This document shows, piece after piece, positions 26,983 to 60,808 of a stretch of 64,000 nt of DNA; the first letter of the stretch is position 1, and each line of letters opens with the position of its first letter. This stretch comes from Myxococcales bacterium (GTDB lineage Bacteria > Myxococcota_A > UBA9042 > JABWCM01 > BTVJ01). The translations under genes were made by a program, and so were the position numbers. The DNA lies in NCBI GenBank assembly GCA_045863395.1, contig BTVJ01000024.1:31996-95995 (forward strand), given 5' to 3'. The notes beneath the pieces are model-generated. The model was not told the DNA's origin and did no database searches. It was given only the letters and a program-made list of their open reading frames with translations.

Positions 26983-27007
26983 AGTGGAGGCGCCGGGAGT
27001 CGAACCC
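26983..27007 (-). repeat. att core, left end: tmRNA (ssrA)-type 3' fragment
   Basis: AGTGGAGGCGCCGGGAGTCGAACCC is identical to 60782-60806; the minus strand reads GGG-TTCGACT-CCCGG-CGCCTCC-A-CT (T-loop, acceptor 3' strand with U70, discriminator A). Confidence 0.88.
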
Positions 27008-27091
27008 TCCAAATCCGTCCTCCTTACCTGAGTCGGCTTTCGCCTTGCGTGTCGGGCGTTTAGCCTCGCGCCGAGGCCGCCTGACGAGGGA

Positions 27092-28318
27092 TCACGAGGG
27101 CTCAATCGGCGCCATTTGGTGTCCAGCCTGTGTCCGTGGCGTGTCCGAGATCCGGGGCGCCGGGCCTGCCCCATTGGGCTCCAGCAGATCGAGGGCAAAC
27201 ACCCATCCCGGGCCGTTCTTGTTCCGGTCATAGACCGAGATCGCCGGGTCGGCCTTGGGGAGGAGCACCTTCCCGCACTCGACGGCCACGGAGTTCGGCA
27301 CGGCCGGGAAGACGTGAATCCGCACGCCTGCGCCATGAACACGCCGGATGTCGTGAAGCGCCTGACGGAAGAGCCCGGCGAACTGGGCCAGCAGCCCGCG
27401 AGTCCTCACGAAGTCGGCCTGGGGTCGGCTCGCCGTGATGCGCCAGATAGGGACGCAGCCGGGTGGAGAGGCAAGGACCTCCTCGTCGTGAACCACGCCG
27501 CTGACGGACAAGACAAGCGCCACGTCGGGCGCGTCACCTGCGCAGTCCTCCGGCGGGTCGAGGGTGAAGCCGTCTCCGCCCTCTCCGGGCGCATCCTGCC
27601 ACGCCCAGGTGTCGGGGACTCGGAGCTTCTGGAAGACGTGGACGGAGGCGATGTCCCCGAGGGCTCGCCCCAGCACCATCAGGAGGGGGATCGGGGCAAG
27701 CGCGAACACCGAGATCGAGGTCGGAGTCGGGTTCCCGAGCGAGGCTCGAAGGGCATCGCGGACCTGGCGAACGATCTCCCCAGCAGTGAAGCTCCAGAAC
27801 TGCGGTTCGTCATCGCGCACGGCCAGGGTGGTCAGGTCGATCGTGAAGTCCCCGCGCTCGGGGTACAGCAAGAGCGGCAGCATCGCCGTCCGCGCCATGT
27901 CCCTCGACACGACGGTCGCCCGTCCTCCGATGTTGGCCTTCACGAAGACGAGCTTCGTCTTGTGGGTTGCCTGCATGTCGAGCAGGTTCGCCACCCGCAC
28001 TTCGTGCTCGCGCTTGAACCGCAGAAGCAGATCCTCGGGGTGCTCCTCTACGGCATCCACGTCGATGAGCCGGTGGTGGTCGAGGCAGAGCAGCATCAGG
28101 TTGGTGATGGCCTGGGCGAGTTCGGCCGACCTCGTCGCGTGTCCTCGCGGGCCTTTCGGGCTGTCGGCGACGATGTGGGCGAAGACCGACCTGTTCATGT
28201 CCCGCTCGGTCAGCTCGTCCACGTCCAGGCGCTTGTTGCAGCCTGGATACTCGCACCGGCCACCCGCTCGTCCGACGAGGGCGAGCTTCACGCTCGGGGA
28301 GATGTAGCTGCTCGACAT
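27092..28318 (-). CDS. cap5: CBASS effector, HNH-SAVED nuclease (Cap5-type)
   Basis: N-terminal CEYPGC...AHIVADSPKGPRG...NLMLLCLDHHRLID (HNH/Zn); SAVED motifs SVFALAPIPLLMVLG, LSVSG, IHVFPAVPNSVAVECG; 11 bp downstream of the CD-NTase. Confidence 0.92.
   Translation of the reverse strand: MSSSYISPSVKLALVGRAGGRCEYPGCNKRLDVDELTERDMNRSVFAHIVADSPKGPRGHATRSAELAQAITNLMLLCLDHHRLIDVDAVEEHPEDLLLRFKREHEVRVANLLDMQATHKTKLVFVKANIGGRATVVSRDMARTAMLPLLLYPERGDFTIDLTTLAVRDDEPQFWSFTAGEIVRQVRDALRASLGNPTPTSISVFALAPIPLLMVLGRALGDIASVHVFQKLRVPDTWAWQDAPGEGGDGFTLDPPEDCAGDAPDVALVLSVSGVVHDEEVLASPPGCVPIWRITASRPQADFVRTRGLLAQFAGLFRQALHDIRRVHGAGVRIHVFPAVPNSVAVECGKVLLPKADPAISVYDRNKNGPGWVFALDLLEPNGAGPAPRISDTPRTQAGHQMAPIEPS
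27119..27146 (+). repeat. Putative integrase arm-binding sites (GTGTCC x3, 11-bp period)
   Basis: GTGTCC at 27119, 27130 and 27141; the same motif occurs at 60709 and 60720, inverted at 60735. Confidence 0.65.
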
Positions 28319-28329
28319 GACCGTGTGGG

Positions 28330-29289
28330 CTACGCGGGGAAGTCCGGCCCGAACACGCGGGCGAGGCGACGGCAGGCTTCCGGCTCGTTCGACGAGGCGA
28401 GCGAAGCAGCGGCCGACAAGGCGTCACGGAGCGAGACCAGCCGCTGCTTGAACTCGACCATCTGCTGGTCGCTCATCCGGGCGAACAGGTCGTTGCCCGG
28501 AGGCAGCGGGAGTTGCACGGACAGGCGGCCCGACCACGAGAACGCGCTGATCATGGACGAGACGACTTGGTGAGTCGCGGACAGGTCGTCGTACTCGACC
28601 TTGTTGTTCCAGACATCCCAGACCGTCTTCTTGCCCGGCGTGAACCAGAGGTAGGCGCACGCGGTCAACGCGATGCCCCTCGGCGCCGCGTTCCCCTCCA
28701 CCGAGAACCCGAAGTCCTTCCACCGCTTCAGGTAGCGGATCACTCGGCGGAACTGGTCGGCGTCGTCGCCGGAGTGCTTCTTCGAGATGAGGTCCGTGAG
28801 GTCGCGTGGGCTCGACTGCACCCACTTCCGCTGGTCGGCCGATGAGTTCTGCTTCCCGGTGGCGAGGTGAAGTCCGCCCCGCATGTCCTTCGCGTACACG
28901 GCGAGATCGACATGGTACAAGGGCTCGCCGCCCTGGCTGTAGAACACTGTGATGCAGGGGCGGCGGAACCCGACCGGCTTCTGGGTGTGCCCGTTCACGG
29001 CGGTGAAGACCCATTCCTTCACCTTGACGGGATCGGGGTACTGGGCCTTGTCGATGTTGAAGACCAGCCCAACGTCGATGTCGAAGTCCCCGGCGACCGG
29101 CTTCACCCCGGTCCCCATGTCGTAGCTGCCCTGGTTGAACGGCTCGAAGGTCGGCCGCTGCGCCCTTGCGAGGCCGTCGCGGAGGCGAGTCAGGACGCGA
29201 TCCCGCTTCTCTCGGAGTTCCGCGTTCTCGTCGAACCGCTTGAGCTTGATGGCCTCGTCGAACGTCCTGAACTTGCTCTGGAGCCCCAC
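28330..29289 (-). CDS. cGAS/DncV-like nucleotidyltransferase (CD-NTase), CBASS synthase
   Basis: FNQGSYDMGTGVKP..GDFDIDVG, RRPCITV.Y, YHVDLAVY, RRVIRYLKRWKD, FGPDFP; GTG start with GGGAGG RBS. Confidence 0.92.
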   Translation of the reverse strand: MGLQSKFRTFDEAIKLKRFDENAELREKRDRVLTRLRDGLARAQRPTFEPFNQGSYDMGTGVKPVAGDFDIDVGLVFNIDKAQYPDPVKVKEWVFTAVNGHTQKPVGFRRPCITVFYSQGGEPLYHVDLAVYAKDMRGGLHLATGKQNSSADQRKWVQSSPRDLTDLISKKHSGDDADQFRRVIRYLKRWKDFGFSVEGNAAPRGIALTACAYLWFTPGKKTVWDVWNNKVEYDDLSATHQVVSSMISAFSWSGRLSVQLPLPPGNDLFARMSDQQMVEFKQRLVSLRDALSAAASLASSNEPEACRRLARVFGPDFPA

Positions 29290-29471
29290 GTCCGCCCTCC
29301 CAGGGTAGGTAGTGTCCGGCCAATGTAGGTACGGATCGCCCGTTGGCAAGGGGCATCCCGGCTGGCCCGAGTCACCGGGGCGCGCCCGGACACCCCGGGT
29401 CTGCGAGCGTGTCAGTGGCCGATGGGTATAGGTGGTGGCCGAGGGAACGCCTTGTCGCCCAGGAGACGCGC

Positions 29472-29657
29472 ATGACCACGAAGATCACGACCTACCTGAC
29501 CCTCCCCGAGCAGGTGCGCCGTATGGCGGGCATGGCTGCCACCCGCGCTGGGGTGACCCTCTCGGAGTACGTCTTGTCGTTGATCGTCGAGGACTGCCGC
29601 AGAACCGGCGTCGCGGACCTCGTGCCCCCGAAGCCGGAGGTGCAGGTCTCCGGCTGA
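29472..29657 (+). CDS. Small ribbon-helix-helix-like regulator
   Basis: RBS AGGAG; TTYLTLPEQVRRMAGMAATRAGVTLSEYVLSLI strand-helix-helix pattern. Confidence 0.6.
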   Translation: MTTKITTYLTLPEQVRRMAGMAATRAGVTLSEYVLSLIVEDCRRTGVADLVPPKPEVQVSG

Positions 29658-29715
29658 TCCGCAGCTCAGCCTCCACCGCTCGCGAGTAGCTCCTCTTGAA
29701 AGGAGGCCCTACTCG

Positions 29716-30648
29716 ATGTCCACGACCGCCACTACCGCCGACCGCCGCTCCGTCTACCAGACCGTCACCGACCGCATCGTCGCCGCTCTCGAACGCGGCG
29801 TTGCGCCCTGGGTGTGCCCGTGGGACAGGAGCGGCGGGCGGCCCCAGAACGGGGCCAGCGGCCACGTCTACCGGGGGATCAACGTAGTCCTGACCGGCAT
29901 GTCCGGGTACGGCGACGCCCGCTGGTTCACCTACAGGCAGGCCCAGCGGCTCGGCGGCCAAGTGCGCCGAGGCGAGAAGGGCACGCCGGTCGTGTTCTGG
30001 CAGTTCGTGGATCGCCGGGCCGTCGCCGACGGCGAGCACGAGGGCGAAGAGCAGCACTCGGGGCGGACCTCCCGGGTGCCGTTCGCCAAGACCTACGTGG
30101 TCTTCAACGCCGAGCAGATCGAGTGGACTGCCGACTCGCCGATGGCGGCCAAGGCCGAGGCCGAGCCCGTCGCGGTCGAGGCGTGGCAGCACGCCGCGAC
30201 GGGCCTGATTGCGGCGTGCGGGGCCGACATCCGGCACGGAGGCACGCGGGCGTACTACTCGCCCACCGAGGACTACATCCGGCTCCCCGAGGTCAGCCGG
30301 TTCAACGCCATCGCCGACTACCACGGCACCTGCCTGCACGAGTTGGCGCACTGGACGGGGCACGCAAACCGCCTCGGCCGGAACCTGACCGGCCGGTTCG
30401 GGGGCGAGGCCTACGCCGCCGAGGAGCTGGTCGCTGAGCTGGCCGCCGCGTTCATGTCGGCGGATCTCGGTGTCCCCGGCAAGCTCCAGCACGAGGAGTA
30501 CATCGGGAACTGGATCACCCTGCTGGGCAAGGACACGAAGGCGATCTTCACCGCCGCCCGCTTGGCCCAGGACGCCGCCGATTTCCTGCTCGGCAAGGTG
30601 CGCGGCCACGGCGTTGTGGCCGACGAGCACGTCGCCGAGGTGGCGTGA
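29716..30648 (+). CDS. ardC: ArdC antirestriction protein (ssDNA-binding domain + zincin-like domain)
   Basis: YQTVTDRIVAALERGVAPW, YRGIN, WFTYRQA, GEKG, VFNAEQ, AYYSP, LHELAHWTGH, YAAEELVAE. Confidence 0.93.
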   Translation: MSTTATTADRRSVYQTVTDRIVAALERGVAPWVCPWDRSGGRPQNGASGHVYRGINVVLTGMSGYGDARWFTYRQAQRLGGQVRRGEKGTPVVFWQFVDRRAVADGEHEGEEQHSGRTSRVPFAKTYVVFNAEQIEWTADSPMAAKAEAEPVAVEAWQHAATGLIAACGADIRHGGTRAYYSPTEDYIRLPEVSRFNAIADYHGTCLHELAHWTGHANRLGRNLTGRFGGEAYAAEELVAELAAAFMSADLGVPGKLQHEEYIGNWITLLGKDTKAIFTAARLAQDAADFLLGKVRGHGVVADEHVAEVA

Positions 30649-30950
30649 TGCACGCCACGCCGGTCATCGGCACCGAGACCATCTACACCGGCACCGAGCA
30701 CCCGTACCTGACCGGCCTCCGCGTGCGGATCGTCGCCGTGATGAAGGACGCCGCCCGCCCCGACCACGATCCCGACGCCGCCTACATCCGCGACGACGAA
30801 GACCTCGGCCACGTTGGCGGCGTGACCGCTGACGACCGAGTCGAGGTGCAGCCGTGGTTGGAGGCCGAGGGCCGGTACTCGTGGGTGACCAGCGACGCGA
30901 AGGCCATGGACCTCGCCCTCTTCGCCCATCTCCGGGAGTCCCCACCGTGA
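30648..30950 (+). CDS. Hypothetical protein
   Basis: TGATG coupling with ardC; coding-like codon usage. Confidence 0.65.
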   Translation: MHATPVIGTETIYTGTEHPYLTGLRVRIVAVMKDAARPDHDPDAAYIRDDEDLGHVGGVTADDRVEVQPWLEAEGRYSWVTSDAKAMDLALFAHLRESPP

Positions 30951-31438
30951 GCGACAAGCCCATCGACATCGAGCGCGAGCGGATCGCCTGCGTCTTCGGC
31001 CTCGGCGGTGGCGAGCTGCACGAGCCCCACCCCGAGTGTCCGGACGAGTGGGACGGCATGATCGCGTACTGGTACGACGGCGTACCCGACTCCGCGACCG
31101 AGCTGCGGGACGTGAACATCGTCGAGTGCTTCGCCTGCGCCGGGATCGGCTACGACGCCGACCGCGATGCCGACTGCCGTTCCTGCGACGGGATCGGGCA
31201 CCACGATCGCGAGGTGCGCACGGCGATCCTGGAGTGCCTCTATGGTGAGCCCGAGCCCCCCGAGGGGTGGGAGCGCATCGCGTCGTTCACGTCGAGCGGT
31301 GAGGCCGAGTGCTGGTGGTGCGGCGACGGCTCGGGCAACGAGGACGAGCGGGCCACCTGCAAGCTCTGCGAGGGCGACGGCCTCATCTACCTCGGCGACG
31401 GCTGGGCCGAGGTGGTGCTCCGCCGAACCTCGGCTTGA
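30947..31438 (+). CDS. Hypothetical protein with DnaJ-type CxxCxGxG zinc-finger motifs
   Basis: CFACAGIG, CRSCDGIG, CWWCGDG, CKLCEGDG; GTGA overlap with the upstream gene. Confidence 0.7.
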   Translation: MSDKPIDIERERIACVFGLGGGELHEPHPECPDEWDGMIAYWYDGVPDSATELRDVNIVECFACAGIGYDADRDADCRSCDGIGHHDREVRTAILECLYGEPEPPEGWERIASFTSSGEAECWWCGDGSGNEDERATCKLCEGDGLIYLGDGWAEVVLRRTSA

Positions 31439-31463
31439 GTACCACTCATTTGAGTGGTAGCAT
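31435..31463 (+). promoter_or_regulatory. Sigma70-type promoter with embedded palindromic operator
   Basis: TTGAGT (31435-40), 17-bp spacer, TAGCAT (31458-63); perfect inverted repeat TACCACTCA-TT-TGAGTGGTA (31440-31459); lexA ATG 8 nt after the -10. Confidence 0.72.
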
Positions 31464-31471
31464 TTCCGCGA

Positions 31472-32089
31472 ATGGAGCCCCTCACCGACAAGCAGCGCCG
31501 GGTGTACGACGAGGTGGAGGCCAGGATCTCTGCTGGTGGCCTCGCGCCGACGCTGCGGGAGCTGTGCTCGCACTTCCGATGGTCGTCCACCGGCACGGCT
31601 CGGGACGCCCTGAACGCCCTCGTCCGCAAGGGCTACCTGCAAGCGGCCGACGGCCGTGCTCGGGGCTACAGGCTCGTCCGCCGTCCGCCGTCCGCCCTGC
31701 GGGTGCCCCTGCTGGGCCAGGTGCCTGCGGGGGTTCCCGTCGAAGCCGTCGAAGTCGCGCATGGGGACGTGCCCGTGCCGGAGCCCATCGTTTCAGCCTC
31801 CGCGAACTTCGCGCTGCGCGTGACGGGCGACAGCATGACCGGGGCGAGCATCCAGGACGGCGACCTCGTGTTCGTTCGCCAGCAGGCCGTGGCCGAGCCC
31901 GGCCAGATCGTCGTGGCCCGCGTAGACGGAGAGGTCACGGTGAAGCGGCTCCGGCGCCAACGAGGACGCCTGGCGCTCGTCCCGGAGAATCCGAGCTACC
32001 GGCCGATCCCGGTCACGGCTGGAACGGAGATCGTCGGGGTCGTCGTCGGCCTCGTGCGCGGCTATGACGGCCGGTCGGTGAGGGTGTAG
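31472..32089 (+). CDS. lexA: LexA-family repressor (island-encoded paralog)
   Basis: LTDKQRRV...PTLREL wHTH; cleavage site VPAG; catalytic Ser in LRVTGDSM and Lys in VTVKRL; PENPSY. Confidence 0.92.
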   Translation: MEPLTDKQRRVYDEVEARISAGGLAPTLRELCSHFRWSSTGTARDALNALVRKGYLQAADGRARGYRLVRRPPSALRVPLLGQVPAGVPVEAVEVAHGDVPVPEPIVSASANFALRVTGDSMTGASIQDGDLVFVRQQAVAEPGQIVVARVDGEVTVKRLRRQRGRLALVPENPSYRPIPVTAGTEIVGVVVGLVRGYDGRSVRV

Positions 32090-32101
32090 AAGGAGGCTCT
32101 G

Positions 32102-32845
32102 ATGGGCGACAACAGCGGCATCGAGTGGACGGACGCGACATGGAACCCGACCGTCGGGTGCACGAAGGTCAGCCCCGGCTGCAAGCACTGCTACGCCGAG
32201 ATCATGCACCGCCGTCTCACGGAGATGGGGATGGCGAAGTACGCCGATCCCTTCAAGGTTGTGCGCCCGTGGGAACCGCACCTCGAAGAGCCCCTTCGGT
32301 GGAGGCAACCCCGGCTCATCTTCGTGAACTCGATGAGCGACCTCTTCCACGAGGACATCCCGTTCGACTACCTCCGGCGGGTCTTCGACGTGATGGTTCG
32401 GGCCCGCCAGCATCGGTTCCAGGTGCTGACGAAGCGCAGCGACCGCCTCCGAGAACTGGCTCCGGGCCTCCCGTGGGCGTCCAACGTGTGGATGGGGGTG
32501 AGCGTCGAGTCGGCGAAGTACGTCCACCGCGTCCACGACTTGCAGACCGTCCCCGCCGCCGTGAGGTTCTTGAGCGTCGAGCCCCTGCTCGGGCCGATCC
32601 CCAACCTGCCCCTGGACGGCATCCACTGGGTCATCGTGGGCGGCGAGTCGGGGTTCAGTGCGCGGCCGATGGCGCTCGACTGGGCCCGCGACATCCGCGA
32701 CCAGTGCGACGAGGCCGGGGCCGCGTTCTTCCTCAAGCAGCTCGGCGGAGTTCGCGACAAGCGGGGCGGCGACCGGGCGACGCTCGATGGTCGGCTCTGG
32801 CGGGATCTCCCCGACGCCTGGGCGGCTCAGATGGTGGCCGGATGA
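32102..32845 (+). CDS. DUF5131 / phage Gp37-Gp68 family three-Cys (radical-SAM-like) protein
   Basis: IEWTDATWNP..GCTKVSPGCKHCYA, FVNSMSDLFH, FQVLTKR, NVWMGVSVE, FLSVEPLL, WVIVGGESG, FFLKQ. Confidence 0.92.
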   Translation: MGDNSGIEWTDATWNPTVGCTKVSPGCKHCYAEIMHRRLTEMGMAKYADPFKVVRPWEPHLEEPLRWRQPRLIFVNSMSDLFHEDIPFDYLRRVFDVMVRARQHRFQVLTKRSDRLRELAPGLPWASNVWMGVSVESAKYVHRVHDLQTVPAAVRFLSVEPLLGPIPNLPLDGIHWVIVGGESGFSARPMALDWARDIRDQCDEAGAAFFLKQLGGVRDKRGGDRATLDGRLWRDLPDAWAAQMVAG

Positions 32846-34014
32846 TCCCGCCGGAGTACCAAGGACGCGAGCAGACGTGGCTCAAGCATCGCGTGCTCGA
32901 CGAGTACCTGAGCGGGTGGGCACACAAGCTGGGCTCCGTTGCCCGGAAGATGGCAGTGAAGCTCTGGTACGTGGACTGCTTCTCCGGCCCATGGAAAACG
33001 AGGACGACGGACCTCAGCGACACGTCGATCTTCCTGGGGCTCAACGCGCTCCAGGCGGCGAGGACGACGTGGGCGGAGAAGGGGGTGCTGATCCAGCTCG
33101 GCGCGATCTTCATCGAGAAGGACGCGACGGCGTTCGCGGAGCTTCAGAAGGTCGTTGCGCAGCACGCCACCGGCATCGACGCCCACACGTTCCACGGGCG
33201 CTTCGCGGATCATCTCGAAGACATCCAGCGGCTGGTCGGGAACGACGCCGCGTTCTTCCTCGTGGATCCGACGGGGTGGGACGGCGCAGCGATGAGGTAC
33301 ATCGCGCCCCTCGTGTCACGGGGTCGGCGTGACGTGCTGGTCAACGTCATGTTCGACCACATCAACCGCTTCAAGGACGACCCCCGGGCGTTCTTGCGCG
33401 AGCAGATGAAGGAGTTCTTCGGGCTGGCGGACGCAGACATCCAGGCCGGGCTCGGAGAAGAAGAGCTGATGGCGTTCTACCGCGAGCGCCTTCGCACCGT
33501 GTGCGGGCTGCCCTACACGGCGGACCTCGCAGTTCCGCACCCGACGGTCGAACGGACGAAGTTCCGTTTGGTCGTCGGCGGGCACCACCCGGAGGTTCTG
33601 CGCTTGTTCCGCGACGTGGAGCGCAAGGTCATGGGCGAGGAGGCCGCCGTGGTGCGAACGGAGGCCAAGGAGCGCGACCGGCTCGATCGAAGCGGCCAGA
33701 TGGCGCTCTTCGACCCGGCACCTCCGAAGGAGAGCCCACGGTACGCCGCACAGCGTGAGGAGGGGCAACGACAGGCGCGCAACCTCGTCCCCGCGTTGCT
33801 GCGAGAACGTGGCCCGCTGACGTACAAGACCATCTGGCCCATCGTCCTCCAGCAGTGCCACATCCCCGAGGGCGACCTGGCCCACCTGCTTGCTGAACTT
33901 CGGACGGATGGTGTCGTCGAGGTCGAGGGGCTCCGGCCTCGTGAGCGTCGGGTGAAGGACGAGCACCTCGTGCGCATCAACGTCGGGGCGGCCGACAACA
34001 CGCGGAAGCGGTAG
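32842..34014 (+). CDS. tcmP: Three-Cys-motif partner protein (SAM methyltransferase-like fold, C-terminal wHTH)
   Basis: EQTWLKHRVLDEYL, YVDCFSGP (SAM motif I-like), FIEKD, FFLVDPTGW, DVLVNVM; ATGA coupling to DUF5131. Confidence 0.87.
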   Translation: MIPPEYQGREQTWLKHRVLDEYLSGWAHKLGSVARKMAVKLWYVDCFSGPWKTRTTDLSDTSIFLGLNALQAARTTWAEKGVLIQLGAIFIEKDATAFAELQKVVAQHATGIDAHTFHGRFADHLEDIQRLVGNDAAFFLVDPTGWDGAAMRYIAPLVSRGRRDVLVNVMFDHINRFKDDPRAFLREQMKEFFGLADADIQAGLGEEELMAFYRERLRTVCGLPYTADLAVPHPTVERTKFRLVVGGHHPEVLRLFRDVERKVMGEEAAVVRTEAKERDRLDRSGQMALFDPAPPKESPRYAAQREEGQRQARNLVPALLRERGPLTYKTIWPIVLQQCHIPEGDLAHLLAELRTDGVVEVEGLRPRERRVKDEHLVRINVGAADNTRKR

Positions 34015-34053
34015 GCGGCCTATCGTCCTGCCCCTGGCAGGAGGCCGCCGCCC

Positions 34054-36980: not shown

Positions 36981-36987
36981 GGCCCGG

Positions 36988-52257: not shown

Positions 52258-52378
52258 CGGTGGGTCCCCTCGCCGACCTCGCCCACGAGAAAAGTGAGGG
52301 CAGACCCCGGTAAAGAGCCAATACCCGCCGGGTATAGGTGGACGGGCGCTGACGCCCCGCCACCTGGAGGAACCCTCG

Positions 52379-52639
52379 ATGACCGTGAACGACATCGCCT
52401 CGTTGCTGACCACCTCGCAGCTCGCCCATGTGCTCGGGCGAAGCCCGGCGACCATCGTGTCTTGGGCGAAGAGCGGACGCATCCCCGTCGCCATGTGGGT
52501 GGGGCTCGACGTGCGCGGTGCCCGCTACCGCCTCGACGACGTGCTGGCCGCGCTCCAGCAGCCCCCGCCGTCCATCTGCACGCAGGCCGCGAGCGACGAC
52601 CACAACGACCGCGTCGGAGGCGTGCGAGCCGCTCGGTGA
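52379..52639 (+). CDS. Xis/AlpA-like HTH protein
   Basis: LLTTSQLAHVLGRSPATIVSWAKSGRIP...RYRLDDV; RBS GGAGG. Confidence 0.78.
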   Translation: MTVNDIASLLTTSQLAHVLGRSPATIVSWAKSGRIPVAMWVGLDVRGARYRLDDVLAALQQPPPSICTQAASDDHNDRVGGVRAAR

Positions 52640-52668
52640 GGAGCGAGGGGGACGAGAAGGAGGACGAG

Positions 52669-55600
52669 ATGAGCGACGAGATGGCCCCCGCCCCGGCGGC
52701 AACCGAGGCGGAGGCGAGCGGCAAGACGAACGCTGTGCCCGTTCTACCCGATGAGGGCGTCATCCGCAGCTACATCCAGTGGTTGCACGACGAGGACGAC
52801 CCCATCTGCGACGTGCTCCTGTGGGACGACCACCCGGGTCACAGGGGCCCGACGGGCGACCGCCGGGGCAGGCTCTCCGAGCTGCTGCCGGAACTGGTGA
52901 GGCTCAACGCAACCGGCACTGCGGTCGGCGTGCGCCTGGCGGTCTTCGAGGGCGAGGGCACCGACGAGGAGAACGTCGCCCGGGTGCTCGCCGTGTTCCA
53001 GGACTCCGACCGGGGAACGCTGCCAGGTGTCGAGGGCACCATGCACTCCCGGGGACGGCAGGGTGATCACCGCGTGCACCGGCTCCACAAGGACGACGGC
53101 AAGCGGTTCAAGGACATCAAGGACGTGGCGCTCCGCCTCGCCGTCCGCGACCGCACCGACCCGGCGACGACCCTGCTGAACCAGACGCAGCGGCTTCCGG
53201 GCAGCGTCAACTGGAAGAAGCCCGCGAGCCCCGTGCTCGTCACGCTCGTGGCTCCACTGCCCGATCGGAGCTGGCGTCTCGACGATCTGGCCGCGAAGAC
53301 GACGGCCCTCGACGACGAGGAGACGAAGTCGTACCGGGTCTGGTACGCCTCCCAGAAGCTCCGCGACAAGCTCGGTGGCGACGAGATCCCCGACTTCGGC
53401 ACCAAGAAGTGGGGCAAGGCCGAGCGGGTGGTCCGGGACTGGGTGACGGCCGACCGGGAGCGGACCCGCCTTCGCCGAGCCCTGCACGAGCGCCTCGCCG
53501 ACGAGGCCGTCGCCGAGGACGCTCCGAAGCTCGCCAAGGATCTCGGCCTCGAAGAGATCGCGGCGGAGCAGGAGCCCTTGGTCTACGCGCTGGACAAGGC
53601 GACGGCCGAGACCTGGCTCGGCGCGGCGAAGCCCGCGTCCTTCGATGCGACGAAGGACTGGACCCAGACTGCCGTGCTCGCCAAGCTCCGCTTCTTCTGC
53701 GTGACTTTCGGCTTCGACACCGCGAAGCCCCTGCCGCCCCAGCCGTGGGACAAGAAGACGGCGCTACGGATCGCCGTCGAGGCCGAGCACTGGATCGCTG
53801 CCTGCGAACGCTATCGCATCGCCCAGATGCGCATCCCCACGCTCTCCAACAATCCGGGCGGCGGCCGGTGGGAGGCGAGCCAGGTGCCGAAGCCGGAGCC
53901 CTTCGCCTTCGGCTCTGTCCCCGAGGACGTGCTGAAGGCCTGGAGCAAGACCCGCAAGTCGGCAGGGTCGAGATGGATCCTCACGACGTTCAAGGTCGCC
54001 GACTTCGTGAGGGACACGGGCATCCTGCTCGGCACCGGCAGCTACGGCACCTCGACCGTCTACCAGATCAACTGCCCGTGGGCCGACGAACACTCGGGGC
54101 CGTCGAGCCCGAGCACGACCTCCATCTTGCACACGCCGGGGGAGGTGCCGGGGTTCCGGTGCTTCCGGTCGTGCCACCAGGACAAGACCATCATCGACCT
54201 CGTGCGGCACTACGCGGACGCCCTCAGCGACTACTGCGAGGCTCGGTCCCCGTCCGACGCCGCAACGTCCATCACCGTGGACGACCGGAACATGACCATC
54301 CCGGCGGGCTACCGGGTCACGGACGCTGGGCTCATGCTCGTCCGAGTGACGGAGGCCGGGGAGGTCGAGATCCCCATCTGCCCGACTCCGGTCTACATCA
54401 TCGGGCTCGGCCGCGATGTGCTCTCGGGCCAGGAACAAGTCGAGCTGGCGTGGAAGCGGTACGGCGCCCGGCGCACGCTCGTTGCCGCCAGGCGGGACAT
54501 CGCTGACCGCACAAAGATCGTCGCCCTCGCTGACCGGGGGATCCCCGTGACGAGCGAGAACGCCCGCGACCTCGTGACGTGGTTCGCCAAGTTCGAGGAG
54601 GCCAACCCCGACCTCCCGAAGACGAGCACGACCTCGGTGATGGGGTGGACGCGGTGCCGTCAGGCGTTCGTCGTCGGCGACCGTGTGATCGGCACGCCCA
54701 AGGAGCCCGTCACGTTCGGCACGTCCGACCCCGGCACCGCCGATCTTGCCGCCGGGTTCGTGATGCGAGGCAACCTCGCCGAGTGGCGGGACCTCTTCGA
54801 GGAGGTGGTGAAGTCCAGCCCGCCTGCCGCGCTCGCGGTGTACGCCGCAGTAGCCCCGATTCTGCTGGAGCTGCTCGACATGCCCGGGTTCGCCGTCGAG
54901 TACGCAGGCGTGACGAGCACCGGGAAGACCACGGCCCTTCGGCTCGCCGCGTCCGTGTGGGGAACGCCCGACGAGGCGAGGAGGGGCTCAGTGCTGGGCA
55001 CCTGGAAGGCGACCCGCAACGCCATCGAGCGCATGGCCGCGTGCCGCTCCCACCTCCCGACCATCCTCGACGACTCGAAGGGGGCGGCCAGGCCGGAGAC
55101 GGTGCCCCAGGTCGTCTACGACCTCGTGCAGGGGCAGGGACGAGGGCGGGCGACCATCCACGGGCTCCAGCAGTCGGGGCACTGGAGGACGGTGGTCGTC
55201 ACGAGCGGGGAGGAGCCGTCCGCTACGATGGCCGGACACCGGGCCGGTGGGGCGTCGGCGCGGACGCTGCTGGTCTGGGGTTCACCGTTCGACGGAGTAC
55301 CCGCCGACAGGCAGAAGGCGCTCGTCGATCAGATCAACGGCGAGGTGCGCACCACCTACGGACACCTCGGCCCAGCTTGCGTCGAGCGGCTCATTCGAGG
55401 GCTCGAAGAGACGAAGTTCGATCTTCGCCCAGTGCACGCGATCGAGGCCGAGAGGCTCTTCAAGTCGTCGCCAGGGTCGGCCGTTGCGGGACGAATGGCC
55501 GACTCGATGGCCGTGCTTTCCCTCACGGGAGTGCTCGTCCACAAGGTCTTGCAGATCGAGCACATCAAGCCGCAGGCCGTCATCGACGCCTGCTGGCAGA

Positions 55601-56358
55601 CGATCGTCGGCGAGGCCAAGACCGCCGACGTGGCGAAGTCCGCCCTGGAGATCGTGTTCTCGACGGCGACGGCGCAACGGCACCGCTTCTGGGCCATCGG
55701 GAAGTCGGGGGACGCTCCCCATCTCGGATGGGGTGGCCGGTGGGACGACGCTCCCGACGCCGACCTCTGCATCACGCCGGAGTTCCTCACCCAGGCGTTG
55801 CGGGAGTCGAGGCACGACGTGAACGCCGTCGTGAGGACCTGGGCCGACCGCAAGTGGATCTCCGTTCAGGGCACCGACCGGCGGACGAAGAAGGTGCGCC
55901 TCTACGACGTGCTCACCAACTGCTACGTGATCCCGGCGGTCATCATCTCGGAGCAGGTGCTCGACGGCGGAGCCGTCATCGACCGCAAGTCGGAGCCCGC
56001 CGAGGACACCGGCGTCGAGGAGTTGTTGGAGAACCTCGCAGCGACAGCGGCACTGCTCCGTAAGAAGGGCGTGGAACCGCATCCTGGGGTACTACGGGCT
56101 CCGGAGCCCCAGTCCCCGACCGTGCGTGACCATACGACGCAAGCGGCGAACCGGGGAAACGACGACCAGGGCGAGGGCACCGACCCCGAGTCCCTGGCGA
56201 TCTTCGACGAGTTGAAGAAGTACGTGTGGCCAAGGTTCCCGCCCGGCGTGTTGGAGCCCCCGGGCCCCGAGTCGTCCCAGGAAGCCTTTCTCGATCACCG
56301 ACGCCGCCTGCTGGCCTACGTGAAGGCTCACGGCAAGCCTATCGGTCAGCAAGCGTAG
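52669..56358 (+). CDS. Multidomain primase-helicase: RepB-type primase, Zn finger, DUF927/Cch-like helicase
   Basis: VFQDSD...HSRG..GDH...DPA...QRLPGSVNWK primase motifs; CPWADEH...FRCFRSCH; MGW, GVTSTGKTT, ILDD, GQGRGR, WRTVVVTSGE, YGHLG; RBS AAGGAGG. Confidence 0.85.
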   Translation: MSDEMAPAPAATEAEASGKTNAVPVLPDEGVIRSYIQWLHDEDDPICDVLLWDDHPGHRGPTGDRRGRLSELLPELVRLNATGTAVGVRLAVFEGEGTDEENVARVLAVFQDSDRGTLPGVEGTMHSRGRQGDHRVHRLHKDDGKRFKDIKDVALRLAVRDRTDPATTLLNQTQRLPGSVNWKKPASPVLVTLVAPLPDRSWRLDDLAAKTTALDDEETKSYRVWYASQKLRDKLGGDEIPDFGTKKWGKAERVVRDWVTADRERTRLRRALHERLADEAVAEDAPKLAKDLGLEEIAAEQEPLVYALDKATAETWLGAAKPASFDATKDWTQTAVLAKLRFFCVTFGFDTAKPLPPQPWDKKTALRIAVEAEHWIAACERYRIAQMRIPTLSNNPGGGRWEASQVPKPEPFAFGSVPEDVLKAWSKTRKSAGSRWILTTFKVADFVRDTGILLGTGSYGTSTVYQINCPWADEHSGPSSPSTTSILHTPGEVPGFRCFRSCHQDKTIIDLVRHYADALSDYCEARSPSDAATSITVDDRNMTIPAGYRVTDAGLMLVRVTEAGEVEIPICPTPVYIIGLGRDVLSGQEQVELAWKRYGARRTLVAARRDIADRTKIVALADRGIPVTSENARDLVTWFAKFEEANPDLPKTSTTSVMGWTRCRQAFVVGDRVIGTPKEPVTFGTSDPGTADLAAGFVMRGNLAEWRDLFEEVVKSSPPAALAVYAAVAPILLELLDMPGFAVEYAGVTSTGKTTALRLAASVWGTPDEARRGSVLGTWKATRNAIERMAACRSHLPTILDDSKGAARPETVPQVVYDLVQGQGRGRATIHGLQQSGHWRTVVVTSGEEPSATMAGHRAGGASARTLLVWGSPFDGVPADRQKALVDQINGEVRTTYGHLGPACVERLIRGLEETKFDLRPVHAIEAERLFKSSPGSAVAGRMADSMAVLSLTGVLVHKVLQIEHIKPQAVIDACWQTIVGEAKTADVAKSALEIVFSTATAQRHRFWAIGKSGDAPHLGWGGRWDDAPDADLCITPEFLTQALRESRHDVNAVVRTWADRKWISVQGTDRRTKKVRLYDVLTNCYVIPAVIISEQVLDGGAVIDRKSEPAEDTGVEELLENLAATAALLRKKGVEPHPGVLRAPEPQSPTVRDHTTQAANRGNDDQGEGTDPESLAIFDELKKYVWPRFPPGVLEPPGPESSQEAFLDHRRRLLAYVKAHGKPIGQQA

Positions 56359-56361: not shown

Positions 56362-56580
56362 TTACCGAGTCCGACCTGACCTGGTGAGCGCGGCCAACAC
56401 GTCCTCGAACCGGAACCTGACCGCACGTCGAAGCCGCACGACAGGGATCGCCCCTTCCCTGACGACACGGCGGATCGTGGAGACGCTCACCGAGAGCGCC
56501 TCGGCCAGTTCGCCGATGGTGAGTAGGCGATCCTTGTCGGATGTCCTGGTAGTCGTCGCCTCGGGCGTCGTGTTCGTCAT
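56362..56580 (-). CDS. Excisionase-family HTH protein
   Basis: LLTIGELAEALSVSVSTIRRVVREGAIPVVRLRRAVRFRFEDV; RBS AGGAG. Confidence 0.85.
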   Translation of the reverse strand: MTNTTPEATTTRTSDKDRLLTIGELAEALSVSVSTIRRVVREGAIPVVRLRRAVRFRFEDVLAALTRSGRTR

Positions 56581-56823: not shown

Positions 56824-57090
56824 TCAGCTCGCCAGCAGCCGACGGGTCAGCTCGGCGCGTATTTCGTCCCCTGCGGAGGGGTCGCCCTCGTACACGAGCA
56901 GGATCGCGGCGTCCCCTTCGTCGCCAACGGCCTGGCGCGGGAACCACTCCTTCCAGGTCCAGTCCCCCGTAGCACGCTGGGCCTCCCACCGAAGCGCCAA
57001 GCCGTAGCGCGAGACCGTGCCATGCGCGCTGTACTCACCCGTCTCGGCGCCGTGGTGAACTTCGAGCACGTCGATGACCCTGGGCTCCAC
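56824..57090 (-). CDS. Hypothetical protein
   Basis: GTG start abutting the upstream stop; RBS GGAG. Confidence 0.5.
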   Translation of the reverse strand: MEPRVIDVLEVHHGAETGEYSAHGTVSRYGLALRWEAQRATGDWTWKEWFPRQAVGDEGDAAILLVYEGDPSAGDEIRAELTRRLLAS

Positions 57091-57611
57091 TACTCCACCT
57101 CGTCGCCGTCTCCACCCGTCTCCTCCGCCCCCGCCGTGCGCGGCTCCATGCCAGCAGGCCACCCGCCTCTGGGCTCGTACCGCTCGGTCTGCGTGAACCA
57201 CCGCGAGATGCCGGTTCGGTTGATGTAGACGCCCGGCGTCGTCGTACCGGGAGTCACCCTGGCCCGACGGCCGAGCGCCCCCTTCCTCCCCGTCTTGCGC
57301 CAACCCTCCTCCTCCATCGCCATCAGAATGACGACGCCCACGGCCTGCCTGAACCGCTGGGTCGTGTGGGCGTCGTTCGCCCGCAGGAAGTGGTCGATCT
57401 CGGGGATGCGCTCGAACTCCTTCACCACGCCCGCGAAGGCGGGGCTCTCGTGATGCAGCTCGCTCTCCTTCATGCGGCGCCGCGTGTCGTCTCGGTTGAA
57501 GAAGTCGAGGACGGTCTGGAACGGCGTGCGAGCGTCCCTCGGCACGTCCGTGAACAGGCGGCCAGTGCGGTGGTTGATGAAGTCCTGGGTCGTGACGGTC
57601 GTGACGGCCAT
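57090..57611 (-). CDS. Hypothetical protein, paralog of 47688-48122
   Basis: RBS GAGGAG; upstream TTGACG promoter-like AT-rich stretch near 57660-57692. Confidence 0.72.
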   Translation of the reverse strand: MAVTTVTTQDFINHRTGRLFTDVPRDARTPFQTVLDFFNRDDTRRRMKESELHHESPAFAGVVKEFERIPEIDHFLRANDAHTTQRFRQAVGVVILMAMEEEGWRKTGRKGALGRRARVTPGTTTPGVYINRTGISRWFTQTERYEPRGGWPAGMEPRTAGAEETGGDGDEVE

Positions 57612-57711: not shown

Positions 57712-58686
57712 CTACAAGTCCAACGCCCTCGCCGCGCACGCCTCGAACAACGTCCCCGCCTCGACGTAGCCCCTCAACACCTGCAACGACGAGTGCCCCG
57801 TCGTCCGGGCGATGTCCCTCTCGGACGCCCCGGCCCTGGCGGCCTCGGTAGCGAACCCCCGCCTGAGCGAGTGCCCGGCGAAGAGGACCGGGTCGAGACC
57901 AGCTCGGCGAGCGGCACGCTGGACGACATGTGCGACGGCACGGCCGTCGAGGCGGACGCGGGCGGCACCTGGGTCGAGGCGGACGAAGAGCGGCCCTTCG
58001 GTGATGGCCGCTGCATCGAGCCAGGCGCGAAGGGCACGCACCGGGCAGGTGGCCTCGTGGCGGCCCCGGGGCACGGCAACCTGACGGCCCTTGCCCTCCT
58101 GGTCACGCTTGCTGCGGCGGATCGTGACCACGGCACCCTCGGGCTCGAAGGCCACGTCGGCCACGTCGAGCCCGACGATCTCTGACCGGCGTATCCCGCT
58201 CACGAAGGCAAGCAGGACGATGGCCTTGTCCCGCGTGCCGACGAGGCCCTCGGGCATCGTGCCGACCATCTTGCGGACGTGCTCGACCCTGAGCGCCTTC
58301 TTGGGGTTCGCCGCCGTGCCCTTCGTCCTGCGAAGCCCGGCCATAACGAGCCTGACCGGCTCCGTCTGAACCGGGGAGGCGAACCCGGCGAGCTTGTGCG
58401 CCTGGGAGATGGCGGCCAGGTGCTTCTTGATCGTCTGCGGCCGGAGCTGCTCGGCCATGTCGGTGATGTACACGATGATCGTGTCCGGGGTCGCTGGGCA
58501 CGAAGCGAGCCCGCGAGACGAGCACCACGCCGTGAAGTTCCTCCAGACGGACTGGTAGGTTTTCAAGGTCGCCGACGCCTTCGATGCGCGGGCGTACTCC
58601 TTCGCCTTCTCGACGAGGGCCGCCGGGACGATCCCGGCGTAGTTGTCGTTGGTGATCTCGGCGGGGAGCAGGGCGTCCACGGGCAA
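57712..58686 (-). CDS. Cre-like tyrosine recombinase/resolvase
   Basis: N-terminal SAM-like domain (TLKTYQSVWRNF..WC); SGIRRSE (R), RRSKRDQ (K), GHSLRRG (HxxR), TGHSS, RGYV (Y). Confidence 0.92.
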   Translation of the reverse strand: MPVDALLPAEITNDNYAGIVPAALVEKAKEYARASKASATLKTYQSVWRNFTAWCSSRGLASCPATPDTIIVYITDMAEQLRPQTIKKHLAAISQAHKLAGFASPVQTEPVRLVMAGLRRTKGTAANPKKALRVEHVRKMVGTMPEGLVGTRDKAIVLLAFVSGIRRSEIVGLDVADVAFEPEGAVVTIRRSKRDQEGKGRQVAVPRGRHEATCPVRALRAWLDAAAITEGPLFVRLDPGAARVRLDGRAVAHVVQRAARRAGLDPVLFAGHSLRRGFATEAARAGASERDIARTTGHSSLQVLRGYVEAGTLFEACAARALDL

Positions 58687-58703
58687 GTGCCTCCGGGTCT
58701 GCG

Positions 58704-58759
58704 AGGTGCCGAGAACTTTCGATTCCCGGCACCTTCCCTACTCGTGGTTCCCGGCACCT
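58704..58759. promoter_or_regulatory. lox-like recombinase-binding site (12-bp arms, 7-bp spacer) plus a third arm
   Basis: AGGTGCCGAGAA-CTTTCGA-TTCCCGGCACCT (11/12 match); extra TTCCCGGCACCT at 58748-58759. Confidence 0.55.
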
Positions 58760-59255
58760 GAGCCGGAGAACTTCGGCCGAGGTTCGAGCGCAGGCGCTCC
58801 GAAGTTCGGTGCCGAAGTTTCGTAGGGTGCCCCTCGGAACTTTCGGGCCGAACTTCACGCCCCGACGTTCCACCTCGTTGGCGCCGTCGTCCTGCTCGTC
58901 GCCGTCGAGCAGGAGCACGAAGATCACCTCGTCGGCGCCCGACCCATCATCGAGCACGAGCACGACGCCGAGCGGGCCGCCGATGGCCTCGACGCTTCCG
59001 GGTCGATCCGTGACACCGCTTGGAAAACCCAATCGGGTTGATCGGGTAGCCAGATCCGCCGCACTCAACCTGCACGCAAAAAGCAACCGAGCGGGCCCAA
59101 CGGGGGCCTCGACTCCGTGGGGAGATGCTCAGCGGGTGCCCTGATGCGGGTAGCTCTGGGTTGGTGGGGTCATCTGCGCGCCCCGCCGGGTAACGTGTTC
59201 CAGGACGCCCTGGATCCCCCGGCAAGCCGGGGTGAAGGGGACGCGGAGGAGCGAC

Positions 59256-59774
59256 GTGGAGAAGGACAAGGACATCCTGGACGAGCTTGGCCTCGGCGGC
59301 GTCGTGTCCGGGCCGATGGAGGCCTTCGTCCTCGGGGAAGATGCACCCCAGAAGCGGGCGGGTTCGGCTGCGCGTGCATCCACGCAGGCGGACTCGACGT
59401 GGTGGACGCACACCGAAGTGCGCAACCACCTCCGCGTGGATGTCCGCACGCTCTTCGAGCGGATGCGGGACACCCCGTCGCACATCAAGCGGCCATGGGT
59501 GAACATCGGGAGCGCCAAGAAGCCCACCTACCGATGGCGCTCAGCGGTCGTGGACAACTGGTGGATCGAGGTGAACGAATGGCGAGCATCGACGATCGGG
59601 GCGACGGCTACCGGGTCCGTTGGCGCGACCCCGACGGTCAGGCGAGGTCGAGGCAGTGCCCAGACCTCGCGACGGCCCGGAGGCTCAAGCGCGAAATCGA
59701 GCAGGTCGTCGCCGAAGGACGACGCTGGGAGCCTCGTGACGCTCGTCCGCTCCCTGACCTCCGCGAGATCCTGA
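59256..59774 (+). CDS. Xis-like wHTH protein overlapping the integrase 5' end
   Basis: WWTHTEVRNHLRVDVRTL...PWVNIG...YRW...VDNWW; RBS GGAGGA. Confidence 0.58.
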   Translation: MEKDKDILDELGLGGVVSGPMEAFVLGEDAPQKRAGSAARASTQADSTWWTHTEVRNHLRVDVRTLFERMRDTPSHIKRPWVNIGSAKKPTYRWRSAVVDNWWIEVNEWRASTIGATATGSVGATPTVRRGRGSAQTSRRPGGSSAKSSRSSPKDDAGSLVTLVRSLTSARS

Positions 59775-60703
59775 CCGCGTACATCCGCGACAAGGCCCGC
59801 GTTCTGGCGTCGGGCACGGCCGAGCGGTACGCCCGCAACTTGGAGATCTTCCTCCGGTGGTTGCAGGAGCGGGAGGGGGCGCGGGGCAAGTTGTTTCCCG
59901 ACCTGCTCACGAAGAACCTGCTCGCCGAGTTCTACGAGGCGCTGGCGGGGGACGGACGGCATGGTCGGCCCCGGCGCGACTCGACGAGGCGCAAGATCGT
60001 CGAGGTCGTCCAGCTCGCCTGGGAGTGGGCCTACAACGAGGACGAGTGGAGCGCCTCCGTGCCGAGGCCGCGCAGCATCGAGATGCGCCGGGAAGAGGGC
60101 GAGCTGACCGTCGCCCCGACCTGGGCCGAGATGGACGCGGTGGTCCGCGCCTTCGACCAGGAGGCGTGGCACCACAAGCTCGGCATCGTGCTCCGCTTCA
60201 CCGGGCTCCGCGTGCAGCAGGTCATGGGCCTCACCTGGGAGGACTTCGACCTCGAACGGGCCACCCTCCGCGTGCGGGGCGAACTCTGCAAGAGCCGCCA
60301 AGAGCGGCGGGGCCGGATCATCCCCATCTCGAAGCACCTCGTGGACATCCTGTCCGGCTGGGGCCGCCGGGAAGGGTTCGTCATCACCACGAACCGGCGG
60401 GGCCGCCGCGAGCGGCTCGCCCGGCCGCGTGACCTCGACCGCGCCTGGACGCGGGCGGGGGTTCGGGCTTCCGCCTGGAAGGGGCGTCCCCACCACGCCT
60501 TCCGCAAGGGCTTCGTGTCCGAGCTTCGCCGGGCGGGGGCCGACCCGGACGCGGTCGAGTACCTCGTCGGGCACAGCCTCGGGCTGCGGGGCGTCTACAC
60601 GGATCCCGATGCGCTCGCGCTGCGCCAAGCGGTGGCGCTGATCCCTCCGCTCACCGCCACCACGGCGATCGTGAGCCTCGATTCGCGGCGGGCGGCGGAG
60701 TAG
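59579..60703 (+). CDS. Tyrosine integrase with N-terminal arm-binding domain
   Basis: MASIDDRGDGYRVRWRDPDG arm domain; FTGLR (R), CKS (K), HAFRK, VGHS, VYT (Y); next to att. Confidence 0.93.
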   Translation: MASIDDRGDGYRVRWRDPDGQARSRQCPDLATARRLKREIEQVVAEGRRWEPRDARPLPDLREILTAYIRDKARVLASGTAERYARNLEIFLRWLQEREGARGKLFPDLLTKNLLAEFYEALAGDGRHGRPRRDSTRRKIVEVVQLAWEWAYNEDEWSASVPRPRSIEMRREEGELTVAPTWAEMDAVVRAFDQEAWHHKLGIVLRFTGLRVQQVMGLTWEDFDLERATLRVRGELCKSRQERRGRIIPISKHLVDILSGWGRREGFVITTNRRGRRERLARPRDLDRAWTRAGVRASAWKGRPHHAFRKGFVSELRRAGADPDAVEYLVGHSLGLRGVYTDPDALALRQAVALIPPLTATTAIVSLDSRRAAE

Positions 60704-60708
60704 CTCGC

Positions 60709-60740
60709 GTGTCCGCCGCGTGTCCACGGACTCGGGACAC
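60709..60740. repeat. Putative integrase arm-binding sites
   Basis: GTGTCC at 60709 and 60720 (11-bp period); inverted GGACAC at 60735. Confidence 0.65.
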
Positions 60741-60781
60741 GCATCAAAACGTCAATAAATACAAGTGCTTGCGAGAAAAGA

Positions 60782-60808
60782 AGTGGAGGCGCCGGGAGTC
60801 GAACCCGG
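60782..60808 (-). repeat. att core, right end: ssrA-type 3' fragment with complete T-arm
   Basis: Minus strand CCGGG-TTCGACT-CCCGG-CGCCTCC-A-CT; 25 bp identical to 26983-27007. Confidence 0.88.

Follow-up and report, generated by a model that had tools for sequence, protein, structure and literature searches.

A strain-variable 33.8-kb defence island with a predicted replication module at a copy of the tmRNA 3′ end in a Myxococcales bacterium

The island, its ends and its variation between strains

The window analyzed here is a 64,000-nucleotide stretch of a Myxococcales bacterium (GenBank assembly GCA_045863395.1; 8.77 Mb, 70.9% GC, 186 contigs, 97% completeness), namely the final 64 kb of contig C24 (BTVJ01000024.1), and it holds an island of 33.8 kb, att to att, at positions 26983-60806. 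The two ends, attR (26983-27007, minus strand) and attL (60782-60806, minus strand), are identical over exactly 25 bp with no extension, as an earlier reading made from the letters of the window (the sequence-only reading) had noted, and we find that both duplicate the 3′ terminus of the tmRNA gene (ssrA) of the host: in reverse complement, the repeat corresponds to the T-arm and acceptor of the tmRNA that ARAGORN places at C44:16472-16832. Our search of all 186 contigs for att-like copies with up to 4 mismatches identified six, these being the tmRNA itself, C44:30666, C44:60680, C157:6110 and the two island ends. Alignment of these six copies showed an identity common to all only from the T-loop onward, and the T-loop is one crossover sub-site among those tabulated for tDNA islands in PMC4383910. 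A tyrosine integrase lies within the interval, a distal tDNA 3′ fragment is present and the length falls within 2-200 kb, which are features of the Islander definition as given in that source, a further one being a full tDNA upstream in the same array. The island also carries predicted integrase arm sites at both ends, found by motif search, with three GTGTCC repeats at 11-bp spacing at 27119-27146 (plus strand) and two GTGTCC repeats plus one inverted copy at 60709-60740 (plus strand); the motif GTGTCC-N5-GTGTCC occurs four times in the genome, and three of these are at the island ends (27119, 27130 and 60709). The GC content of the island is 67.7%, versus 71.4% for window positions 1-22580. 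The island is real and is a site-specific integrative element, and the integrase with arm sites described by the sequence-only reading is confirmed. The full tmRNA sits on C44 and is followed there by two further islands and then by host-like genes, and C24 stops at window position 64000; the window island may belong further down the C44 tmRNA array or sit at a displaced tmRNA copy. A scan of the window against Rfam at gathering thresholds gave zero matches.

The region is not syntenic core among related strains. A search with window positions 20501-30500 listed 21 runs, 20 of them holding part of the query, across 8 studies, with a word coverage of 0.95 in one run and 0.52-0.60 in eight. We aligned the assembled contigs of four runs from four studies (X1 to X4, of which X1 may be the source sample) to positions 18001-38000. 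The X1 contigs span the left att with 0 differences. One X2 contig (record 15) matches 26664-27005 with 2 differences and one X3 contig (record 22) matches 26423-27004 with 0 differences, the left-flank pieces of both runs being 99-100% identical to the window, and both contigs then diverge into other sequence inside the att. Since these flank contigs, from two studies, exit the reference within the repeat, the island is strain variable and its boundary exact. An empty site joined to the right flank of the window would match up to 27007, and the X2 and X3 strains therefore likely carry the end of a different island at the left att. An X4 contig (record 29) carries a diverged att-arm copy together with the LexA-DUF5131-TcmP module and the WHD/o118 genes described below, in the opposite orientation. 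CBASS, the antiphage system of the window island (see below), was not among the X2-X4 pieces listed, from which we draw no inference about its absence.

Gene content of the island

The integrase (59579-60703, plus strand; PF00589) has intact catalytic residues by inspection and belongs to a clade whose members adjoin tmRNA or tRNA-Sec genes. Homologues with some match are present in 34 of 41 genomes, adjoining tmRNA in G022 (73% identical), G034:C3, G003, G032 and L067, and tRNA-Sec in G011, G034:C18 and G029, and many integrase remnants lie at tmRNA in relatives. The same clade serves varied backbones, among them that of a tailed prophage (L064) and those of short, helicase-less elements (L065, L067); behind the 73% identical integrase at the tmRNA of G022:C5 (L016:5212-10917) lies a different backbone, with ubiquitin-like, ThiF-like and RadC-like genes by eye. 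Three Xis-like genes had been proposed for the island, and two of these stand on HTH_17 (helix-turn-helix) matches, i.e., an Xis/AlpA-like protein (52379-52639, plus strand) and an Xis-like HTH_17/MerR protein (56362-56580, minus strand), while the third (59232-59774, plus strand) has a weak PHROG match (E 0.0055) and adjoins a homologous integrase in G022 and G011 too. The second recombinase (57712-58686, minus strand; 55% identical to the copy in G198) was correctly recognized as such: it is a Cre-like tyrosine recombinase along its whole length, its closest solved structures are those of Cre, it has matches in 3128 of 72,556 plasmid records, and we predict it to be a multimer resolvase. Clusters of short direct and inverted repeats lie upstream of its gene at 58700-58860, a possible resolution site. 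Further genes encode a 173-aa protein (57090-57611, minus strand) with no hidden Markov model (HMM) match and no usable ESM Atlas match, and a 232-aa protein (48585-49283, plus strand) that resembles a lone SAM-like (core-binding) integrase domain lacking the catalytic domain, for which Atlas cosines of 0.91-0.94 serve as a lead only.

The replication module centers on a self-loading-type helicase of the DUF927/Cch class (52636-56358, plus strand), identified by DUF927 and Cch HTH matches, whose closest solved structures are PDB 8tch (annotated as a "pathogenicity island protein") and 5dgk, the Cch protein of the staphylococcal cassette chromosome mec (SCCmec). The helicase of the primase-helicase claimed earlier is thus matched by HMM and its putative origin by a 12-iteron cluster, but the N-terminal primase half has no HMM match, and its primase and zinc-finger motifs were recognized by eye. 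The predicted origin (51922-52256) contains 12 GTTCCCG/CGGGAAC iterons in both orientations, which form the densest 400-bp cluster of this motif in the genome against a background of 0.17 per kb; a tRNA-Gly called by ARAGORN at 52200-52292 overlaps this cluster and was rejected as spurious. DUF927 is not in itself diagnostic of this kind of island, in that class homologues are present in 3 of 106 genomes, of which one belongs to a complete prophage and another to a small tRNA-Arg element. Upstream lies a Dam-like methyltransferase (50963-51806, plus strand) whose family is matched by HMM fragments as had been read, but which is broken over three frames. The ParA of the sequence-only reading is an HTH-ParA fusion (45640-47341, minus strand, together with a 180-aa partner) identified by HMM and by comparison of neighbors; it may be cargo rather than part of this module, because on a Methylocystis plasmid, too, the homologue of its 180-aa partner comes after an AAA ATPase. 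The DnaX-like ATPase (49280-50953, plus strand) is treated in the next section.

The island also carries defence cargo, and the CBASS, type I restriction-modification (R-M), ArdC and LexA-DUF5131-TcmP functions named by the sequence-only reading were all borne out by HMM or PADLOC. The cyclic-oligonucleotide-based antiphage signaling system (CBASS) consists of an HNH-SAVED effector (27092-28318, minus strand; PADLOC E 1.9e-116) adjacent to a CD-NTase cyclase (28330-29349, minus strand; PADLOC E 1.9e-112), in keeping with a CBASS made up of cyclase and effector only. It is followed by a 61-aa protein without an HMM match that is ribbon-helix-helix-like by eye and has a homologue in a G007 island (29472-29657, plus strand), by ArdC with ArdcN and MPTase domains (29716-30648, plus strand; HMM; 55% and 60% identical to the copies in islands I2 and G302), and by two small genes encoding 101 and 163 aa (30645-31438, plus strand), both of which also follow ArdC in G302 and the second of which is also in I2. 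The LexA-DUF5131-TcmP module (31472-34014, plus strand; HMM, with PADLOC matches to PDC-M41/M30) is also present in X2 and X3, with copies at 94-97% identity. Next come a 202-aa protein without an HMM match and with a partial homologue in G087 (34054-34662, plus strand), and a variable surface-protein slot with MORN-repeat (HMM) and lipoprotein-like proteins (34389-36425, minus strand; lipoprotein signal by eye). An XRE HTH regulator (36630-36980, plus strand; HMM) is convergent with o118 (36988-37344, minus strand) and a stand-alone WHD protein (37311-37991, minus strand; Pfam PF22977), the latter corresponding to what is elsewhere the N-terminal domain of proteins of ~750 aa. The o118 protein is small and all-helical in its model and belongs to a 30-sequence family without a Pfam match; the model (pLDDT 86) has no fold match above Z 6.4, which is not evidence for a new fold. 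The type I R-M locus encodes HsdM, HsdS and HsdR (39378-45643, minus strand; HMM). Of the proposed orphan nuclease (38145-39332, plus strand), what can be said is that a PD-(D/E)XK-like motif is seen by eye and that our scans gave no family match.

No capsid, portal, large terminase subunit (TerL), relaxase or type IV secretion system (T4SS) gene was identified by Pfam, PHROG and NCBIfam scans of the called island genes, and a PHROG scan of 33 further open reading frames, mostly in alternative frames, likewise gave no head-protein or other transfer family, in agreement with the sequence-only reading, which recognized no capsid, terminase, relaxase or T4SS genes. Matches to PHROGs of the small terminase subunit (TerS) were confined to the N-terminal HTH part of two HTH proteins (72 and 86 aa), and no full-length TerS or full terminase was found. 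Similarly, none of the three components of an integrative and conjugative element, i.e., VirB4, a type IV coupling protein (T4CP) and a relaxase (no classical MOB family by Pfam/NCBIfam), was found in the island by these scans. In the host genome we found no match to VirB4 (PF03135) and one weak match to T4CP (PF02534), on C97 and outside the island.

The island is flanked by two toxin-antitoxin islets without an integrase (22652-26820 and 60905-63950). The left islet encodes HepT-MNT, an AAA-DUF234 ATPase and a DUF4258-HTH pair, the last of which recurs together with an att on C157 (87%), and the right islet encodes AbiEi/AbiEii and a truncated ATPase copy 95.6% identical to the ATPase of the left islet. 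Repeats of ~185 bp and 70 bp at 62781-63039, with 91-98% copies on C20, C91, C67, C128 and C40, sit at the truncation point of this duplicated ATPase and are possibly a small mobile repeat, and a cluster of short direct and inverted repeats lies upstream of the left-islet ATPase at 25258-25323. We rejected an integron-cassette reading of the islets, as no integron integrase was found, although no search for attC was made. Elsewhere in the window, positions 1638-9030 encode large host proteins with cysteine-rich repeats that occur in hundreds of copies genome-wide.

Sister islands and a clade of DnaX-derived proteins

Using the o118 family (present in 7 of 401 genomes of the phylum, the own genome included) and the DnaX-derived clade as markers, we located islands in distant relatives, and because islands were found through these markers the counts given here are not a census. 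Five more islands were identified, namely I1 (13.9 kb) and I2 (30.0 kb) after the tmRNA on C44, and one each in G132, G302 and G198, which belong to other classes of the phylum. The G132:C2 island is 43 kb long, has ~52% GC and is bounded by a 48-bp repeat at tRNA-Ala, and no clear att repeats were found for those on G302:C29 and G198:C74. I1, I2 and the window island share a WHD - o118 - convergent XRE - lipoprotein/MORN block, and the layout common to the six comprises an integrase, a resolvase, a swappable replication slot, the stand-alone WHD (PF22977), XRE and a lipoprotein. XRE homologues are present in six of six islands, as is the WHD (five by tblastn, G302 by Pfam), and o118 in five of six; a resolvase adjoins the integrase in all six, being a serine resolvase in four and Cre-like in two; and DnaX-like, type I R-M and ArdC genes each occur in three of six. 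As the layouts are similar in such distant relatives, the window island likely belongs to a family of islands, so far without a name, that would need a helper for movement between cells. In G198, o118 and WHD are fused in one protein of 295 aa (G198:C74:47110-47997; L239:17110-17997), which suggests a functional partnership, i.e., that the two work together. No head, tail or conjugation family was identified in our scan of most, not all, of the uncharacterized reading frames of the sister islands, and no non-coding block beyond the att is conserved across the six. A 207-aa protein of G132 that resembles the SAM-like protein by eye was excluded as its counterpart, the alignment not being significant (E 0.051).

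I2 (C44:30690-60680; L012, L013) carries a prokaryotic Argonaute (Piwi), ABC-3C, a type I R-M system, an AAA_15/AAA_21 ATPase and a DpnII-like nuclease, and the replication slot of the G302 island (G302:C29:100224-103741; L231:10224-13741) holds an 816-aa protein with a reverse transcriptase (RT) domain and a 356-aa partner. The stand-alone WHD is also present in differently composed islands, one of which, in G007, has phage-like genes further along the contig, and the o118 gene of G327 lies in a differently built region. A 737-aa full-length WHD protein on C17 (C17:100214-107933) sits beside genes resembling metallopeptidases and ATPases as well as remnants of phage head genes (by eye), and genes like these neighbors flank the stand-alone WHD in G057 and G058. 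Islands with WHD or o118 in G014:C19, G022:C71, G058:C26, G302:C29 and G327:C1 adjoin a gene that we take to be ychF-like. The ychF gene is a pipolin site reported in PMC11551731.

The DnaX-like ATPase of the window island was borne out as an AAA+ protein with a four-cysteine zinc module, recognized by alignment and by a TIGR02397 match (E 3.9e-15, below the cut-off); the collar and the Walker B DE are absent, the latter being NE, and the AAA+ part is fused to an N-terminal region of ~300 aa. A profile built from the two DnaX-like copies in the genome gave 27 matches at E<=1e-30 among 1.84 billion representatives, and our analysis of the best 150 placed 38 sequences, including that of the window, in one clade with a FastTree support of 1.0 (midpoint-rooted). 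Members of this clade keep Walker A, the arginine finger and the zinc module (lost in three), and they end within 215 residues past Walker A (median 193, n = 37), compared with a median of 494 in 113 other matches. Walker B is NE in 30 of the 38, versus DE in 114 of 115 others. Many have N-terminal fusions, with one weak ParB-HTH match and one HTH_17 match among them, and pattern scans of the clade gave only weak, generic AAA matches. Within the phylum, a single-sequence search identified the DnaX-like protein in the own genome only (1 of 401), and a search with the clade profile added one clear member (G132), a further nine near-threshold matches resembling ordinary DnaX. Genomic context was available for three full members only, all of which are in islands, in addition to a remnant recognized by eye in the tmRNA island of G032. 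In AAA+ proteins of this type, loss of the collar is expected to block normal clamp-loader assembly, and a Walker B change from D to N to impair hydrolysis, and the island protein is thus predicted to bind ATP but to hydrolyze it poorly. A broader proposal, which we regard as a long shot, is that an as yet undescribed, phylum-wide family of transfer-less islands is marked by o118-WHD-XRE, and that many of its members use a collar-less, hydrolysis-poor DnaX paralogue, domesticated as a clamp-loader mimic, that would divert the host replisome to the circle or stall host or phage replication. If true, mobile elements would have a hitherto unseen means of controlling DNA replication in bacteria. 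The clade offers a concrete biochemical target.

Movement of the island and its likeness to known elements

We propose, with a probability of about 0.55, that this strain-variable defence island in a tmRNA 3′-end copy excises, replicates itself from its iterons and travels passively in helper-phage particles. Int and Xis would excise the 33.8-kb circle with a crossover in the T-loop, the Cch/SaPI-type helicase would load at the 12 iterons and replicate it, the Cre-like recombinase would resolve multimers, as the small serine resolvase would in four sister islands, and LexA or XRE may gate induction. The vehicle could be a full-size temperate-phage capsid, e.g., that of the resident ~33-kb C2 prophage, a tentative suggestion that we place somewhat short of an even chance. 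This prophage (C2:214415-247697) is apparently intact, with a terminase by HMM and, by eye, genes for an integrase, portal, capsid and tail, which makes it a candidate helper. In favor of this reading, too, the host has no VirB4 match, and the review PMC8538405 names transformation and transduction as routes of DNA uptake in myxobacteria, conjugation being said not to have been observed.

Several observations weigh against this proposal. No TerS or capsid-redirecting gene was identified in HMM scans of the called and alternative reading frames, and the island and the C2 prophage share no sequence at E 0.01, their match in size being possibly due to chance because sizes among the sister islands span 14 to 43 kb. 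The complete tmRNA lies on a different contig from the island. The Dam-like gene is a pseudogene, and the helicase has no close relative in IMG/VR and none in a scan of JGI metagenomes. The Reps of Staphylococcus aureus pathogenicity islands (SaPIs) self-load at origins of 6-12 iterons, as described in PMC9371898, but the island iterons are upstream of the helicase gene and the SaPI origin is downstream of rep. The replication slot is moreover swapped between islands, holding DUF3987 in I1, a RepA-like HTH protein in I2, a primase match in G132, the RT in G302 and nothing recognizable in G198. ArdC, present in half of the islands, is mainly known from conjugative elements according to PMC6222260. 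Finally, in X1 the assembled-contig depths of the island (21.4, 20.6 and 19.0) show no excess over those of the flanks (23.1, 20.9 and 16.1), depth of this kind not being copy number, and no attP junction or loose end was among the X1 contig loose ends listed. The excision and replication proposed by the sequence-only reading were not borne out in this sample.

Of the alternatives, the one that survives best, which we nevertheless consider unlikely, is an integrative mobilizable element that would be carried along by a conjugative helper, by way of an unrecognized origin of transfer (oriT) or an MpsAB-like relaxase, with the recombinase as MpsA and the SAM-like protein as MpsB, as in SGI1. MpsA is described in PMC6414798 as a tyrosine-recombinase-like relaxase, and the lone SAM-like domain at 48585-49283 resembles the description of MpsB given there; according to bioRxiv 10.64898/2026.01.13.699239, earlier profiles overlooked MOB_M relaxases and oriT-only islands, both of which are common; and ArdC is in three of six islands. 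However, the second recombinase is Cre-like throughout and 8 kb from the SAM-like gene, a small serine resolvase occupies the same slot in four sister islands, the host has no VirB4 match, and no non-coding block other than the att is conserved among the six islands.

Distinctly improbable, in our view, is an island that was mobile in the past and has since begun to decay or become locked in place, its cargo spreading by recombination between co-resident islands. This would fit the Dam-like pseudogene, the lack of amplification in X1, the integrase-less islets and truncated duplicate gene on the flanks, the many integrase remnants at tmRNA in relatives, and the presence of LexA-DUF5131-TcmP and WHD/o118 at ~89-97% identity in other arrangements in X2-X4, but the island has kept its integrase, helicase, iterons, arm sites and both atts intact, and it is present in one of the three runs whose contigs match the left flank nearly exactly up to the att, which points to recent gain or loss. 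About as improbable is passage of the excised or replicated circle in naked form or in vesicles, with entry by natural competence or during cell contact and without a dedicated helper. Uptake of a whole 34-kb circle is generally inefficient; on the other side, sister islands range widely in size, natural competence is described for M. xanthus (PMC8538405), competence-mobilized satellites have been reported (PMC13376191), and capsids and vesicles have been searched for tycheposons (bioRxiv 10.1101/2020.12.28.424599).

Movement in helper-phage particles remains our preferred reading. According to bioRxiv 10.64898/2026.01.13.699239, the means by which most genomic islands lacking relaxase and capsid genes travel is an open question. 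The window island provides a precisely bounded, strain-variable example from a myxobacterium-like host, with attP, arm sites and origin all predicted. This host is common in sludge and bioreactor samples, and few replicating mobile elements are described for such bacteria in PMC8538405. The o118, stand-alone WHD and DnaX-derived proteins can serve as markers for a family that shuffles CBASS, R-M, Argonaute and ABC-3C cargo. In the open-access literature we found no description of such islands in Myxococcota or of an island-borne DnaX paralogue.

Among known systems, membership in a defined satellite or tycheposon group, as the sequence-only reading had suggested, is not supported, given that no TerS or capsid gene was identified and that the att-to-att size is above the range of phage-inducible chromosomal islands (PICIs). 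By the SatelliteFinder definition of PICIs, the island has an integrase, a regulator HTH and a primase-replicase (its primase half by eye) and lacks a capsid-morphogenesis gene. Its 33.8 kb from att to att exceeds the PICI maximum of 28 kb (median 9.5 kb, measured from integrase to last core gene in PMC10085698), but its span from integrase to helicase is ~8 kb. It resembles the PICI/SaPI and SCCmec elements described in PMC10085698 and PMC9371898 in its Cch/SaPI-type helicase, iteron origin, AlpA/MerR-like HTH protein and integrase, and differs from them in that no TerS or capsid-morphogenesis gene was identified and in having tyrosine rather than Ccr serine recombinases. The ssrA islands of Dehalococcoides, as described in PMC3146451, are likewise tandem, ssrA-specific and without conjugation genes, with integrase-less members and module swapping, but they appear to have no independent replication genes and carry dehalogenase cargo. 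With SGI1 and oriT-only islands (PMC6414798; bioRxiv 10.64898/2026.01.13.699239) the island shares a second tyrosine-recombinase gene, a lone SAM-like domain, a resolvase and a replication module, whereas its recombinase is Cre-like and away from the SAM-like gene, and it has no tra genes.

The closest functional likeness is to pipolins and cargo tycheposons, combined with a SaPI/SCCmec-type helicase, i.e., the general kind of element is already known. Pipolins, as described in PMC11551731, are integrative and tDNA-targeting elements of ~20 kb with a minimal core, exchangeable integrases, resolvases and a heavy defence cargo, mostly without a relaxase or T4SS. The window island differs from them in that it has no piPolB (no polymerase match among the called island proteins scanned), in that the slot in its family is taken by DUF927/Cch, DUF3987, a RepA-like HTH protein or an RT, and in its o118-WHD-XRE module and DnaX paralogue. 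Cargo tycheposons (bioRxiv 10.1101/2020.12.28.424599) likewise combine an integrase, an excisionase, a primase/helicase and a small recombinase at a tRNA or tmRNA gene with no capsid or conjugation genes, and both they and the window island have leftover material around them. By gene content the island agrees with tycheposons in that it encodes integration, excision and replication functions and has no recognizable capsid or conjugation machinery, and it differs in its length of 33.8 kb versus 10-20 kb, in its phylum and habitat, and in carrying defence rather than nutrient cargo.

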